From: Pristiophorus japonicus | Taxonomy: Eukaryota | Assembly (NCBI RefSeq): GCF_044704955.1 | Contig: NC_091999.1 | Span: 6,820,001 to 6,884,000, forward strand | DNA: 64,000 nt | Direction of reading: 5' to 3' | Part shown: one piece after another, positions 16,701 through 62,035 of the stretch | How the letters are laid out: each line of letters opens with the position of its first letter | Numbering within the stretch: position 1 is the first letter of the stretch | Made by a program: the position numbers and the translations under genes | Notes under the pieces: model-generated | Database searches by the model: none | What the model was told of the DNA's origin: nothing | What the model saw: only the letters and a program-made list of their open reading frames with translations

Positions 16701-16755
16701 ATTGGCTCCCTCCTCTCCTGTTGGGGGTGAGCTGGATATTAAATCACTAACCTAC

Positions 16756-16837
16756 CTTTTCTCGTCCAGACATGGGATGGTGTCCATTTCAAGACCCCTC
16801 TGTTGCCAAAGGCTGTCTCTCTGCTTCCGGTAAATGC
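16756..16837 (-). CDS. Cytoplasmic exon 1
   Basis: Unique island between repeats. Acceptor ccctttctcttcctgcAG, donor AG|gtaggt; 82 nt, phase 1-2; open frame GIYRKQRDSLWQQRGLEMDTIPCLDEK. Confidence 0.72.
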
Positions 16838-22747: not shown

Positions 22748-22885
22748 CTGTTCTCTTCTGCCTGCAGGTCCTGATGCCGTGGGAGACGCAGAGGATGATG
22801 ACAGTGTAGACGAGTAGCCCGCAGACTGCGTAGAGAATCCAGTGCCAGGCCGAGACCCCATGACCGTTGATGAGTATCCAAGACC
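22748..22885 (-). CDS. Connecting peptide plus transmembrane exon
   Basis: Long pyrimidine tract ending ccgcacAG, donor AG|gtacgt; 138 nt, phase 1-1. Translation GSWILINGHGVSAWHWILYAVCGLLVYTVIILCVSHGIRTCRQKRT is a hydrophobic span followed by a basic stop-transfer stretch. This frame is not in the ORF track. Confidence 0.85.
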
Positions 22886-26919: not shown

Positions 26920-27226
26920 CTGACTCCTTTCTCAGCTGACCCTCGACCAGCCCCGGCCAGGACTGGTGACCCACCACGCAGGAGTAGTTGTGGCCACTGT
27001 CCCAGGCGGACGAGGGGACGGAGAGCTGGCTGACCGCCCGGAAGGTCCCCTGGCCGTCGGGGGTCACGGGGAAGGTGGTGGTTGTGTCCGTGACCTCTCC
27101 GGCCGGGGCCCTCCAGCCCAGGTACAGGTCCCCGGGTAGAACCCAGACACGAAGCAGGCAAGGGTGGTCATTCCGTCGTCGCGGGAACCCTCCGGCCATT
27201 CCACCTTCGCCGTGCGTATCTTCGGG
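26920..27226 (-). CDS. Last visible C1-set constant domain exon (5' end lost in the gap; apparent 1-nt frameshift at 27130-27133)
   Basis: PKIRTAKVEWPEGSRDDGMTTLACFVSGFYPG in one frame continues as DLYLGWRAP...GTFRAVSQLSVPSSAWDSGHNYSCVVGHQSWPGLVEGQLRKES in the next frame; one extra G restores the frame. Donor AG|gtaaag, phase 1. Confidence 0.88.
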
Positions 27227-27426
27227 NNNNNNNNNNNNNNNNNNNNNNNNNNNNNNNNNNNNNNNNNNNNNNNNNNNNNNNNNNNNNNNNNNNNNNNNNN
27301 NNNNNNNNNNNNNNNNNNNNNNNNNNNNNNNNNNNNNNNNNNNNNNNNNNNNNNNNNNNNNNNNNNNNNNNNNNNNNNNNNNNNNNNNNNNNNNNNNNNN
27401 NNNNNNNNNNNNNNNNNNNNNNNNNN
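27227..27426. other. Assembly gap (200 N)
   Basis: Run of N; the round size suggests a scaffolding gap of unknown true length. Confidence 0.99.
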
Positions 27427-30941: not shown

Positions 30942-31259
30942 CTGCTCTGCGGACCTGTGTCCTGATTGGCTCAGTCAGTGTCCGGTGTGATACCAGGCAG
31001 GTGTAGCTTGACCCTGATGCCCACAGCGAGCTGGGCGTGCTGAGCCTGCCGATCAGGGTATAACTCCCATCCGGTTGGACGGAGGGACCCGTGTTGGAGA
31101 GGCCTGTGCTGACCGGCTGATTATCCATCTCCCAGCTCAGCGAGATTTCCCCGGGGTAGAATCCGGTGGCTCCACAGATGAGCTCAACGTTGGTCCTGGT
31201 CGCGTTCTCCTCAGGTGGTGGCTGACGGAGGAAGACGGAGGGAGCCTGTAGGGGGCGCA
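30942..31259 (-). CDS. C1-set Ig constant domain exon 3
   Basis: Acceptor ccttctcctttgcAG, donor AG|gtcagt; 318 nt, phase 1-1. VRPLQAPSVFLRQPPPEENATRTNVELICGATGFYPGEISLSW...DGSYTLIGRLSTPSSLWASGSSYTCLVSHRTLTEPIRTQVRRA. Confidence 0.95.
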
Positions 31260-39513: not shown

Positions 39514-39834
39514 CGTCTTGTTTGCTGAGGGTGTGTGTCAGCGGGCTTGGTGAGGAAAGGTGTTTGACCAGACAGGTGAAGACTGAGCCCGAATCCCATT
39601 CCCGTACGGAGACCCTTAACGTGCTGCTGGAACTGAAGGTCCCATTCTCATGTTGTGTTGTGCGGCCGAGCTCCCAGGCGAAGGCTGACTGACGCCTGTT
39701 GATGAGCCAGGCGAAGGAGATGTTCCTGGGGTAATGACCGATGGCCTGACACTCCAACGTGGCAGTCCCATTAGTGTCCATCTCATCGTAGGTGGGCGCT
39801 CGGAGGTAGAGGCTTGGAACTGTCGGGTATCGGG
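39514..39834 (-). CDS. C1-set Ig constant domain exon 2
   Basis: Acceptor ctttctctctcaccAG, donor CG|gtgagt; 321 nt, phase 1-1. ARYPTVPSLYLRAPTYDEMDTNGTATLECQAIGHYPRNISFAW...NGTFSSSSTLRVSVREWDSGSVFTCLVKHLSSPSPLTHTLSKQD. Confidence 0.95.
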
Positions 39835-48612: not shown

Positions 48613-48835
48613 CCGTTGCTGCTCCGTCCTGTTGCCAGGCTGCTGACCCTCTCCCCCTCCCCCAGTCCCCCTTACCTGTCAGTCCAGTTCCCCCTGCTCC
48701 CCCAGCGTCCGCTGACCCTCCGTCCACGCTGACTGACCATCCGTCACTCGGTCAGTTTGGACCCAGAACTTGACCATTGGTCAGCTTCGACCCGTCCATG
48801 CACTGTAGGCGGTCAGCTTGAGATGCACGACAGCC

Positions 48836-51685
48836 AGGTTAGAGGTCGGAGGGAGGTTAGAGGTCGGAGGAAGGTTAGAGGTTGGAGGGAGGTTAGAGGT
48901 TGGAGGGAGGTTAGAGGTCAGAGCCAGGTTTGAAGTCGGAGGCAGGTTAGAGGTCGAAGGGAGGTTAGAGGTCGCAGGGAGGTTAGAGGTTGGGGGCAGA
49001 TTAGAGGTCGGAGAGAGGTTAGAGGTGGGAGGGAGGTTAGAGGTTGGAGGGAGGTTAGAGATAGGAGGTAGGTTCGAGGTCGGAGGGAGTTTAGAGGTGG
49101 GAAGTAGGTTAAAGGTGGGAGGGAGGTTAGAGGTTGGAGGGAGGTTAGAAGTTGGATGGAGGTTAGAGGTTGGAGGGAGGTTAGAGTTAGAGGGAGTTTA
49201 GAGGTGGGAGGGAGGTTAGAAGTTGGAGGGAGTTTAGAGGTGGGAGGGAGGTTAGAGGTCGGAGGGAGGTTAGAAGTTAGAGGGAGTTTAGAGGTGGGAG
49301 GGAGGTTAAAGGTAGGAGGGAGGTTCGAGGTCGGAAGGAGTTTAGAGGTCGGAGGGAGGTTAGAGGTCGGAGGGAGGTTAGAGTCGGAGGGAGTTTAGAG
49401 GTGGGAGGGAGGTTCGAGGTCGGAGGGAGTTTAGAGGTGGGAGGGAGGTTAGAGGTTGGAGGGAGGTTAGAGTCAGAGGGAGTTTAGAGGTCGGAGGGAG
49501 GTTAGAGGTTGGAGAGAGGTTCGAGGTCGGAGGGAGGTTAGAGGTTGGAGGGAGGTTAAAGGTGGGAGGGAGGTTAGAGGTTGGAGGGAGGTTAGAGGTC
49601 AGAGCCAGGTTTGAAGTCGGAGGCAGGTTAGAGGTCGAAGGGAGGTTAGAGGTCGCAGGGAGGTTAGAGGTTGGGGGCAGATTAGAGGTCGGAGAGAGGT
49701 TAGAGGTGGGAGGGAGGTTAGAGGTTGGAGGGAGGTTAGAGATAGGAGGTAGGTTCGAGGTCGGAGGGAGTTTAGAGGTGGGAAGTAGGTTAAAGGTGGG
49801 AGGGAGTTTAGAGGTTGGAGGGAGGTTAGAGGTTGGATGGAGGTTAGAGGTTGGAGGGAGGTTAGAGTTAGAGGGAGTTTAGAGGTGGGAGGGAGGTTAG
49901 AAGTTGGAGGGAGTTTAGAGGTGGGAGGGAGGTTAGAGGTCGGAGGGAGGTTAGAAGTTAGAGGGAGTTTAGAGGTGGGAGGGAGGTTAAAGGTAGGAGG
50001 GAGGTTCGAGGTCGGAAGGAGTTTAGAGGTCGGAGGGAGGTTAGAGGTCGGAGGGAGGTTAGAGTCGGAGGGAGTTTAGAGGTGGGAGGGAGGTTCGAGG
50101 TCGGAGGGAGTTTAGAGGTGGGAGGGAGGTTAGAGGTTGGAGGGAGGTTAGAGTCAGAGGGAGTTTAGAGGTCGGAGGGAGGTTAGAGGTTGGAGAGAGG
50201 TTCGAGGTCGGAGGGAGGTTAGAGGTTGGAGGGAGGTTAAAGGTGGGAGGGATGTTCGAGGTCGGAGGGAGGTTAGAGTTGGAGGGAGTTTAGAGGTGGG
50301 AGGGAGGTTAGAGGTTGGAGGGAGGTTCGAGGTCGGAGGGAGTTTAGAGGTCGGAGGGAGGTTAGAGTTGGAGGGAGGTTCGAGGTCGGAGGGAGTTTAG
50401 AGGTCGGTGGGAGGTTAGAGGTCGGAGGGAGTTTAGAGGTGGGAGGGAGGTTCGAGGTCGGAGGGAGTTTAGAGGTGGGAGGGAGGTTAGAGGTTGGAGG
50501 GAGGTTAGAGTCAGAGGGAGTTTAGAGGTCGGAGGGAGGTTAGAGGTTGGAGAGAGGTTCGAGGTCGGAGGGAGGTTAGAGTTGGAGGGAGGTTAGAGGT
50601 GGGAGGGAGGTTAGAGGTTGGAGGGAGGTTCGAGGTCGGAGGGAGTTTAGAGGTCGGAGGGAGGTTAGAGGTTGGAGGGAAGTTCGAGGTCGGAGGGAGT
50701 TTAGAGGTCGGAGGGAGTTTAGAGGTGGGAGGGAGGTTAGAGGTCGGAGGGAGGTTCGAGGTCGGAGGGAGTTTAGAGGTCGGAGAAAGTTTAGAGGTCG
50801 GAGGGAGTTTAGAGGTCGGAGGGAGTTTCGAGGTCGGAGGGAGGTTAGAGGTCGGAGGGAGGTTAGAGTCGGAGGGAGTTTAGAGGTGGGAGGGAGGTTC
50901 GAGGTCGGAGGGAGTTTAGAGGTGGGAGGGAGGTTAGAGGTCGGAGGGAGGTTCGAGGTCGGAGGGAGTTTAGAGGTGGGAGGGAGGTTAGAGGTCGTAG
51001 GGAGGTTAGAGGTCGGAGGGAGGTTAGAGGTCGGAGGGAGGTTCGAGGTCGGAGGGAGTTTAGAGGTCGGAGGGAGGTTAGAGGTCGGAGGGAGTTTAGA
51101 GGTCGGAGGGAGGTTAGAGGTCAGAGGGAGGTTAGTGGTCGGAGGGAGGTTAGAGGTCGGAGGGAGGTTCGAGGTCGGAGGGAGTTTAGAGGTCGGAGGG
51201 AGGTTAGAGGTTGGAGGGAGGTTAGAGTCGGAAGGAGTTTAGAGGTGGGAGGGAGGTTAGAGGTCGGAGGGAGGTTAGAGGTCGGAGGGAGGTTCGAGGT
51301 CGGAGGGAGGTTTGAGGTCAGAGGGAGGTTAGAGGTCGGAGGGAGTTTAGAGGTGGGAGGGAGGTTAGAGGTCGGAGGGAGGTTAGAGGTCGGAGGGAGT
51401 TTAGAGGTCAGAGGGAGGTTCGAGGTCGGAGGGAGGTTAGAGGTGGGAGGGAGGTTAGAGGTCGGATGGAGATTTGAGGTCAGAGGGAGGTTCGAGGTCG
51501 GAGGGAGTTTAGAGGTGGGAGGGAGGTTAGAGGTCGGAGGGAGGTTTGAGGTCGGAGGGAGTTTAGAGGTGGGAGGGAGGTTAGAGGTCGGAGGGAGGTT
51601 AGAGGTCGGAGGGAGGTTAGAGGTCGGAGGGAGGTTCGAGGTCGGAGGGAGTTTAGAGGTCGGAGGGAGGTTAGAGGTCGGTGGG
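48836..51685 (+). repeat. 18-bp purine-rich minisatellite, about 2.85 kb (about 158 units), with a 681-bp higher-order duplication
   Basis: Unit gggaggttagaggtcgga; identical variant strings at 49156 and 49837. Confidence 0.96.
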
Positions 51686-59634: not shown

Positions 59635-59920
59635 ACCCCCCCCCCCCCAACTGTGGGACCCTCACTCCCAAACTGTGGTCTCCTCACCCCCCCAACTGTG
59701 GGACCCTCACTCCCAAACTGTGGTCTCCTCACCCCCCAAACTGTGGGACCCTCACCCCAAAACTGTGGTCTCCTCACCCCCCAAACTGTGGGACCCTCAC
59801 CCCCCCAAACTGTGGTCTCCTCACCCCCCAAACTGTGGGACCCTCACCCCCCCCAAACTGTGGGACCCTCACCCCCAAACTGTGGCCTCCTCACCCCCCA
59901 AGCTGTGGTCTCCTCACCAG
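59635..59920 (+). repeat. About 22/45-bp C-rich tandem array
   Basis: Alternating ccccaaactgtgggaccctca and ccccaaactgtggtctcctca units. Confidence 0.9.
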
Positions 59921-59929
59921 CCCCACTCC

Positions 59930-60762
59930 CCCGGCCCAGGTACAGGGTATAGACAACCCCCCGCCCTCCCCCCCGGCCCAGGAACAAGGTATAGACGAGC
60001 CCTCCCCTCTCCCCCCCGGCCCAGAAACAGGGTATAGACGACCCCCTGGGCCAGGAACAGGGTATAGACGACCCCCCGGCCCAGGAACAGGGTATAGACC
60101 ACCCCCCGGCCCAGGAACAGGGTATAGACGATCCCCCGGCCCAGGAACAGGGTATGGATGACCCCCCGGCCCAGGAACAGGGTATAGACGACCCCTCGGC
60201 CCAGGAACAGGGTATAGACCACCCCCCGGCCCAGGAACAGGGTATAGACGATTCCCCGGCCCAGGAACAGGGTATAGACGACCCCCCAGCCCAGGAACAG
60301 GGTATAGACGACCCCTCGGCCCAGGAACAGGGTACAGACGACCCCCCGGCCCAGGAACAGGGTATAGACCCCCCCCCAGCCCAGGAACAGGGTACAGACC
60401 ACCTCCCGGCCCAGGAACAGGGTATAGACGACCCCCCGGCCCAGGAACAAGGTATAGATGACCCCCCGGCCCAGGAACAGGGTATAGACGACCCCCCGGC
60501 CCAGGAACAGGGTATAGACCACCCCCCGGCCCAGGAACAGGGTATAGACCACCCCCCGGCCCAGGAACAGGGTATAGACGACCCCCCGGGCCAGGAACAG
60601 GGTATAGACCACCCCCCGGCCCAGGAACAGGGTATAGACCACCCCCCCCGGCCCAGGAACAGGGTATAGACGACCCCCCGGCCCAGGAACACGGTATAGA
60701 CCACCCCCCGGCCCAGGAACAGGGTATAGACCACCCCCCGGCCCAGGAACAGGGTATAGACG
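59930..60762 (+). repeat. 30-bp tandem array (about 27 copies) abutting the V exon donor
   Basis: Unit ggcccaggaacagggtatagacgacccccc. Confidence 0.95.
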
Positions 60763-60774
60763 AGGCCCACCTAC

Positions 60775-61155
60775 CAGCTTGGACTCTCAAAGTTGATCCA
60801 CAGCCACACCAATCGGTCGTATTCTTGTCGCCCTGCTGATCCGTCATTTGGCAGAAGTACCTTGTGGAGTCGCGCCGCGTGGCGTTGGTGATCCGCAGAG
60901 CGATGAACCTCCGCCGAAAGTCCTTCTCCGCCAGGTAGCGGTGGGAGCCCGGGACCACGTAGTTGGGGACCCCCGAATTGGGGCTCCAGAAAACCAGCTG
61001 CTTGATGGCATTGCTCCCCGGGGGCACGTAACCCCAGATCAGGTAGCGGTCGTCGGTATTGCGGGAGAACCGGCACTCCATCCGGACCGACTCACCCTCC
61101 CGGACGCTCATCAAGGTGGACGAGAATCGGAAGTTGCCCCCACCGGAGGTCAGCC
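60775..61155 (-). CDS. Exon encoding leader part 2 plus a complete germline-joined V-J (V-set) Ig domain of an antigen-receptor-like gene
   Basis: Acceptor tctctctcgttattttcAG and donor GCTG|gtaggt; 381 nt, phase 1-1. Translation GLTSGGGNFRFSSTLMSVREGESVRMECRFSRNTDDRYLIWGYVPPG...ALRITNATRRDSTRYFCQMTDQQGDKNTTDWCGCGSTLRVQA has the B-strand Cys, C-strand Trp, DxxxYxC motif and a J-like GxGSxLxV G strand. Confidence 0.93.
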
Positions 61156-61279
61156 CTGAAAATAACGAGAGAGAGAGACGCACTTTGTGAAAACCACGTG
61201 AAACTAACTCAGCAAATGCTGGACCAAGGTAGCTTAGACCTGCTCTGTGCCATTGGTCAAGGTAAACCTGGGGACAGAA

Positions 61280-62035
61280 CCTGGGTTAGACCACACTTGG
61301 AGCACTGTGCACAGTTCTGGTCTCCATATACCTGGGTTAGAACACACTTGGAGCACCGTGCACAGTTCTGGTCTCCATATACCTGGGTTGGACCACACTT
61401 GGAGCACCGTGCACAGTTCTGGTCTCCATATACCTGAGTTAGACCACACTTGGAGCACCGTGCACAGTTCTGGTCTCCATATACCTGGGTTATACCACAC
61501 TTGGAGCACTGTGCACAGTTCTGGTCTCCATATACCTGGGTTAGACCACACTTGGAGCACCGTGCACAGTTCTGGTCTCCATATACCTGGGTTAGACCAC
61601 ACTTGGAGCACCGTGCACAGTTCTGGTCTCCGTATACTTGGGTTAGACCACACTTGGAGCACCGTGCACAGTTCTGGTCTCCATACACCGGGGTTAGACC
61701 ACACTTGGAGCACTGTGCACAGTTCTGGTCTCCATATACCTTGGTTAGACCACACTTGGAGCACCGTGCACAGTTCTGGTCTCCATATACCTGGGTTATA
61801 CCACACTTGGAGCACTGTGCACAGTTCTGGTCTCCGTATACCTGGGTTAGACCACACTTGGAGCACCGTGCACAGTTCTGGTCTCCATATACCTGGGTTA
61901 GACCACACTTGGAGCACTGTGCACAGTTCTGGTCTCCATATACCTGGGTTAGACCACACGGAGCACTGTGCACAGTTCTGGTCTCCGTATACCTGGGTTA
62001 GATCACACTTGGAGCACTGTGCCCAGTTCTGGTCT
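61280..62035 (+). repeat. 51-bp CR1-derived array (about 15 copies), opposite orientation to the other four blocks
   Basis: Unit ctgggttagaccacacttggagcactgtgcacagttctggtctccatatac, continuing into a CR1 3' fragment to about 62375. Confidence 0.95.

Follow-up and report, generated by a model that had tools for sequence, protein, structure and literature searches.

The window, a 64,000-nucleotide stretch of Pristiophorus japonicus contig NC_091999.1 (C23 in the coordinates below), carries on its minus strand a gene with the exon order L-V-C1-Cx-Cy-(C2-C3)n-TM-tail and at least five types of C domain, in which we infer the join from Cy to C2 and the tail exon. The leader lies beyond the window end, and the following features were assigned:

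C23:6888158-6888230: leader exon, phase 1, 4.2 kb past the window end and 7 kb upstream of V; spliced to V.
60775..61155, minus strand: VJ exon, assigned to UrIg2 (Pfam, PDB match, splice contigs, RSS scan).
60797..60808, minus strand: CGCG of the G strand, with Cys117 and Cys119 (alignment to Cys112/Cys114 of 9DMX).
60809..60850, minus strand: germline CDR3 of 14 residues (translation, orthologue alignment).
60815-60823, minus strand: N-x-T sequon of CDR3; the same sequon is marked in fig. S2 of PMC12227049.
41121..41438, minus strand: C1 exon (V spliced to C1; 9DMX match).
39514..39834, minus strand: Cx exon, a C2-type C1-set domain (C-domain tree, 99/91).
30942..31259, minus strand: Cy exon, a C1-set domain (C-domain tree, 95/89).
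27227..27426, no strand: assembly gap of 200 N, where near-identical C2-C3 repeat exons are missing.
26920..27226, minus strand: last C3-type exon, its start hidden in the gap (translation, run contigs).
22748..22885, minus strand: transmembrane exon, the membrane core without a charged residue (C3 spliced to TM in run X5).
16752..16837, minus strand: likely exon for the cytoplasmic tail, including a stop codon (splice site and stop; similarity to the tail of Heptranchias weak, E 0.028; genomic sequence only).

The V exon (381 nt) is bounded by an acceptor, ttttcag, at 61155 and a donor, gtaggt, just past 60775, is in phase 1 at both ends, and holds the last five leader residues and the whole VJ domain. 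Its translation opens with GLTS and has cysteines at residues 28, 102, 117 and 119, the framework 2 WGYVPPGSNAIKQLVF, the CDR3 QMTDQQGDKNTTDW, and sequons at residues 91 (NAT) and 112 (NTT, in CDR3). The G strand contains WCGCG, and its two cysteines occupy the F/W and x positions of FGxG, counting backwards from the final Val. The coordinates of the exon, WCGCG, the length of CDR3, both sequons, framework 2 and GLTS had been read exactly in an earlier note on this DNA. The domain matches the Pfam V-set family (E 7.6e-11), and an AlphaFold2 monomer adopts a V fold with a mean pLDDT of 78.7 (the best of five models, the other four reaching 31-70). As the same note had held, strands C' and C'' are retained, since the Trp-to-Cys spacing is 61 residues versus 53-59 in three ordinary Ig/TCR V exons.

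The best PDB match of this domain is 9DMX, deposited as ‘UrIg2 V-C1-C2-C3’ (E 3.7e-51; second-best match, 6.7e-10), the nurse-shark structure of the UrIg2 described by Flajnik et al. 2025, Sci Adv (PMC12227049). The C1 exon, 20 kb downstream of V, likewise has 9DMX as its best PDB match, and the same entry is the top fold match of the AlphaFold2 model (58-61% identity). Orthologous proteins were recovered by sequence searches in Heptranchias, Pristis, Rhincodon, two Scyliorhinus species and Hemitrygon. The window V is 70% identical to that of Heptranchias and 62-63% identical to XP_038644097.1 and XP_048449493.1, both given as UrIg2 in the accession list of PMC12227049, and the latter value falls inside the interspecies range published there; identity is 34% to the UrIg of the same genome and 16-22% to seven other V exons of this genome. 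In a V tree of 20 rows, whose outgroups were other V-set exons of the same genome (IgL-, TCR- and NCR3-like by look, with no VH or VNAR rows), the window V falls inside the UrIg2 clade with a support of 100/99. An earlier tree of 24 rows with long-branch outgroups gave weaker support (UrIg2 84/99, third branch 90/92, see below), and four outgroup rows were then dropped. One UrIg2 V was found in the genome, among four matches from 108 candidates. The exon is thus almost certainly the V exon of an UrIg2 orthologue, a further shark member of the published family. The odd cysteines are real, but they have, like the gene and its dimer, already been described in print together with a crystal structure. 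Taken as a whole, the locus very probably holds a single, never-rearranged UrIg2 gene, two chains of which would likely be linked tip to tip by the CGCG disulfides in what is probably a non-lymphoid cell-surface receptor for innate capture or for adhesion.

With published UrIg2 the gene shares the single VJ exon, the split leader, the C-x-C of the G strand, the length and sequon of CDR3, several C1-set exons with near-identical C2-C3 repeats, a TM exon, linkage to IgM and TCR-like V exons, and a V identity of about 60%. It differs from it in having two extra domains, Cx and Cy, between C1 and the C2-C3 repeats, in reading CGCG where the published motif is CSCG, and from the nurse-shark protein in lacking Cys182, which catshark UrIg2 also lacks. 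Among extant genes, UrIg2 is proposed to stand nearest to the one that was split by the RAG transposon at the start of adaptive immunity, which makes each orthologue useful.

The crystal structure of nurse-shark UrIg2 shows V domains that pair via their A and G strands, not via the GFCC' sheet, with inter-chain disulfides joining Cys112 to Cys112 and Cys114 to Cys114 (PMC12227049). Because the crystallised construct carries five leader residues, these are Cys117 and Cys119 of the window protein; the offset in numbering is confirmed by the C1 Cys182 of 9DMX, and the G-strand cysteines of the two proteins align residue for residue. The conservation of CGC, which the earlier note had named as a check, holds for its two cysteines in an alignment of eight UrIg2 proteins from seven species of sharks and rays (two rows being from Hemitrygon), all of which keep both G-strand cysteines and the Asp, as well as a CDR3 of 14 residues with the N-x-T sequon; the pattern D[WF]C[GS]CG is likewise present in 8/8. 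By analogy with the nurse-shark protein, a V-V homodimer with inter-chain CGCG disulfides is therefore highly probable for the window protein. The note had envisaged an autonomous or homodimerising V: the homodimer stands, as in nurse-shark UrIg2, while a free-standing domain does not, since V caps a long membrane protein with multiple C1-type domains. Similarly, of the two kinds of disulfide it had suggested for the extra cysteines, the inter-chain kind agrees with 9DMX, and an intra-domain bond would find no partner Cys in FR2 or CDR3.

[quoted passage not shown] The shift of pairing to the A/G edge may have freed the VH/VL contact residues of FR2 to change, and the GFCC' face and the C'/C'' loops would be exposed and likely form the ligand surface. 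Five differences in the exon were seen in other sequencing runs, three of which change an amino acid (S58N, Y66F and V67A, window 60957-60984); all three lie in the C'/C'' region (residues 58-67), CDR3 and the G strand being free of them. Their location fits an exposed C'/C'' surface, these small numbers being too little for proof.

The third inter-chain disulfide of the nurse-shark protein, the C1-C1 bond of Cys182, is less constant: the window C1 has Ser at this site, whale shark keeps the Cys, published catshark UrIg2 lacks it, and in Heptranchias it is displaced by two positions. No C1-C1 disulfide is thus expected in the window protein, where the V-V bonds would be the sole covalent link among the readable ectodomain exons, and the patchy distribution of Cys182 across species makes the V-V bonds the constant link of the family and the C1-C1 bond an optional one. 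CDR3 shows another pattern, being constant in length and glycan and not in sequence. The invariant binding site claimed in the earlier note holds in that CDR3 is germline-fixed, and its length and sequon are kept in 8/8 proteins; what did not hold is the conservation of the sequence, as just 4 of the 14 positions are identical in all eight orthologues and the tip of the loop varies freely. CDR3 may rather serve as a spacer that carries a glycan next to the seam of the dimer, its sequon adjoining the dimer strand.

The protein would then be a long, covalently dimeric surface rod acting in innate capture or in cell adhesion in gill and liver, where the UrIg2 orthologue is expressed, and not in lymphocytes (PMC12227049). 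The uncharged TM segment and the plain tail, in which no ITAM or ITIM pattern was found, point to binding or tethering, not direct signalling. The ligand and function of UrIg2 are only speculated upon by the authors of PMC12227049, and we consider the capture or adhesion role about evenly poised between right and wrong. An alternative is that UrIg2 is an invariant antigen receptor, with the fixed CDR3 as its binding site and signalling via a partner chain. Its V is structurally closest to VH, according to PMC12227049 and to the fold matches obtained here, the length and several residues of CDR3 are constant, and the TM segment is described as partly like that of IgM (PMC12227049). Such a receptor is nevertheless unlikely in view of a CDR3 whose tip is species-variable and which carries a conserved glycosylation sequon, of the TM segment without a charged residue and the lack of ITAM or ITIM in the tail, and of an expression in gill and liver instead of lymphocytes.

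The assembly of the 3' half of the gene requires some caution, as the last C3 exon is frameshifted, adjoins an assembly gap and has an inverted partial copy next to it, features that might suggest a decayed or misassembled copy, i.e., a pseudogene. Near position 27133, however, all three sequencing runs that cover C3, out of four compared, carry one extra base relative to the assembly, and since the missing base is present in 3/3 covering runs the frameshift is an assembly error. Furthermore, spliced contigs connect the leader, V, C1, C2/C3 and TM exons. Those of run X5, identical to the genome across the final 62 nt of V, depart from it exactly at the edges of this exon and pass on to the leader and C1 exons, which bears out the split leader that the earlier note had read from GLTS. 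In runs X5 and X7 the C3 exon is joined to a C2-type exon in a cycle of 645 nt, so that near-identical C2-C3 repeats must be present and collapsed into the gap, and in run X5 C3 is also joined to the TM exon. These C3 joins were read by hand from loose contig ends, the kind and tissue of runs X5 and X7 being unrecorded; run X6 has no cover of V and run X3 none of C3. With this read evidence against the C3 frameshift, a pseudogene was rejected and is very improbable.

The inverted copy lies at C23:6804518-6820000, is about 95% identical to the window from 27074 downwards (the end of C3, the TM exon and introns) and begins at another 200-N gap; it is likely an assembly fold-back or the second haplotype, and possibly a real duplication. 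Beyond this copy and the leader, the flanks at C23:6.76-6.82 and 6.884-6.964 Mb showed no other Ig exon. Tandem minisatellites stand directly beside the V exon, and the introns are full of LINE reverse-transcriptase fragments and simple tandem arrays (window 59640-60770, 61270-62030 and 48780-51600), where long meaningless open frames occur.

No RSS was found within the V exon or in the 300 nt downstream of it, and no CAC follows the second Cys, whereas the same scan recovered an RSS in 3/3 rearranging V exons used as controls; it found none at three related V exons of the same genome either. The V is therefore non-rearranging, as had been claimed, with V and J in a single exon. A joined exon could also be the outcome of a recent event, in which an antibody V of the IgM, IgL or IgNAR type was fused by RAG in germ cells, with intra-domain disulfides like those of type I VNAR. 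Sharks do possess germline-joined V genes (PMC12227049), and the window gene lies on an antigen-receptor contig. The same 14-residue CDR3 is, however, found joined in all eight UrIg2 proteins of sharks and rays, so that the split V, D and J segments that had been looked for in orthologues did not appear, and the nearest relatives of the window V, by identity and in the V tree, are all joined VJ exons. Identity to the other V exons of the genome is just 16-22%, and the bonds in the structure of the orthologue are inter-chain (PMC12227049).

The likeness to IgNAR, which had been raised from the G strand, was a false lead. A Cys at the F/W position of J and the lack of a light-chain pairing signature do recall the type I IgNAR V. 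IgNAR rearranges and lacks most of C'/C'', and the type I cysteines of FR2 and FR4 bond to CDR3 cysteines within the domain; the window V does not rearrange, has no RSS, keeps C'/C'' and has no partner Cys in FR2 or CDR3. On the eight joined orthologues, the V tree and the missing partner Cys, we reject a recently joined antibody V, the probability of which is minimal.

The contig that carries this UrIg2 gene also holds other antigen-receptor genes. Among 150 scored C1-set exons, 27 lie on C23, and the three inspected are all IgM-like; IgM C exons occur at 14-17.7 Mb and other C1-set exons as far as 66 Mb. About 30 of 150 scored V-set exons lie at 9.8-11.7 Mb of the same contig, and the one tested is TCR-alpha-like with an RSS. 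The linkage to IgH and TCR alpha/delta genes that is typical of UrIg2 is thus found here as IgM C exons and a TCR-like V cluster, with no IgW, IgNAR or TCR C exon identified. PSMB5 is a marker gene for UrIg2 linkage in PMC12227049; a proteasome search for it gave no row on C23 among 59 matches of 100 scored, these exons being short and their subunits not identified. Elsewhere in the genome, large IgL-like clusters with some joined V exons were seen at C8:143-149 and 178-179.5 Mb, a much expanded family of joined VJ exons at C9:4.4-6.1 Mb and on many unplaced contigs, a small NCR3-like cluster at C19:15.9-16.0 Mb and two joined V-set exons at C4:77.0 Mb.

UrIg, the MHC-linked paralogue, resembles UrIg2 in its non-rearranging VJ, its C1-set domains and its disulfide-linked homodimer, and differs from it in being MHC-linked and secreted, with three C domains and one extra Cys in the G strand (PMC12227049, PMC10751288). 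The UrIg of this genome was located at C19:9.898-9.925 Mb (V, C1, C2 and C3 exons), on a contig with MHC class II, BET and NOTCH matches. That the window gene is itself this secreted paralogue has next to no chance of being true, even with the same family, 34% identity and a common W.GCG pattern in the G strand, as the V tree and the separate C19 locus refute it, the G strand of UrIg has SGCG and a single extra Cys, matching the UrIg row of PMC12227049, and the window gene has a spliced transmembrane exon.

The two extra domains of the window UrIg2 connect the shark and ray forms of the protein. In a C-domain tree of 37 rows, from which one IgM row was left out, Cx groups with domain 2 of Heptranchias and the first C domain of ray UrIg2 (99/91), and Cy with domain 3 of Heptranchias and the second C domain of ray UrIg2 (95/89), whereas whale-shark UrIg2 passes directly from C1 to C2, without Cx or Cy. 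Since Cx and Cy match ray-type domains, the window gene and that of Heptranchias combine the domain set of rays with that of carpet sharks. Rays are reported to have lost C1, and the epaulette shark to have two more domains (PMC12227049); the Cx/Cy domains of other sharks may already be present in fig. S1A of that work.

The search with the window V also matched a head-to-head pair of UrIg-like, non-rearranging genes at C4:117277425-117306730, which belong to a third branch of the family. Gene B comprises a leader, an intact V in which DWCGCG is present, two C exons, a TM exon and a tail with SAYENV, which we take to be an ITIM-like motif; gene A has three C exons and TM, has lost the tyrosine, and in the assembly sequence carries a V whose reading frame breaks in CDR3. 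Relatives were found in five other sharks, i.e., Mustelus, two Scyliorhinus species, Chiloscyllium (a single scaffold with two adjoining gene models) and Rhincodon, XP_078087760.1 and GCC32115.1 being annotated loci of the branch, giving the following feature:

C4:117.28-117.31 Mb; P0003, P0004, P0013, P0015, P0024, P0156, P0157: members of the third branch.

Like the window UrIg2, these genes have a VJ exon with DWCGCG or a close variant, a WGY FR2, C1-set domains and a TM exon; they differ from it in a V identity of about 35%, a CDR3 of 9-12 residues without sequon, just two or three C domains, the head-to-head arrangement, the ITIM-like tyrosine motif in one tail and a contig without the tested MHC-paralogon markers. 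In the V tree of 20 rows they form a clade with a support of 94/94, slightly below the starred bar, which is sister to UrIg2 (98/94), and their C3-type domains form a clade in the C-domain tree (100/99). A grouping that unites the third branch with shark UrIg2 and leaves out ray UrIg2 was rejected (p-AU 0.002), this group having been chosen after the tree was seen. No member from rays or chimaeras was among the matches returned by our searches, which were not exhaustive. We found no name for this branch in the literature searched, ‘urig3’ being absent from the available text of PMC12227049, and it is apparently unnamed. The PBX, BET and NOTCH markers lie on C8, C19, C20, C24 and unplaced contigs, with one weak PBX row on C18 and none on C4.

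We lean slightly towards a scheme in which the UrIg family comprises three ancient branches, and the covalent CGCG V-V dimer is ancestral to UrIg2 and its unnamed sister branch. The sister branch would be a head-to-head pair of short V-C1-(C2)-C3 membrane receptors, the tail of one being ITIM-like; it would have diverged before the separation of sharks and rays and would today be placed outside both the MHC paralogons and the antigen-receptor complex. The window gene would preserve in its C1-Cx-Cy-(C2-C3)n the complete ancestral arrangement of UrIg2, the ray (Cx-Cy) and carpet-shark (C1-C2-C3) forms each having arisen from it by loss. If this is true, the target gene of the RAG transposon needs a third candidate, one already resembling a signalling receptor. 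A third branch that keeps CGCG is the larger lead of this analysis and, if it holds, leaves the account of antigen-receptor origins with just two paralogues incomplete.

As for the surroundings of the C4 pair, Pfam searches with 150 out of the 585 candidate frames within 540 kb revealed retroelement domains, a single P450 exon and a weak match that fell below the cut-off, and Atlas searches named just generic Ig and P450 clusters. The frames around the pair include pol and gag of LTR retroelements (RT, RNase H, integrase, protease and zinc knuckle), and cytochrome P450 exons stand some 80-100 kb away, at C4:117.387-117.406 Mb, presumably CYP26-like, with CYP120A1 as the closest solved match.
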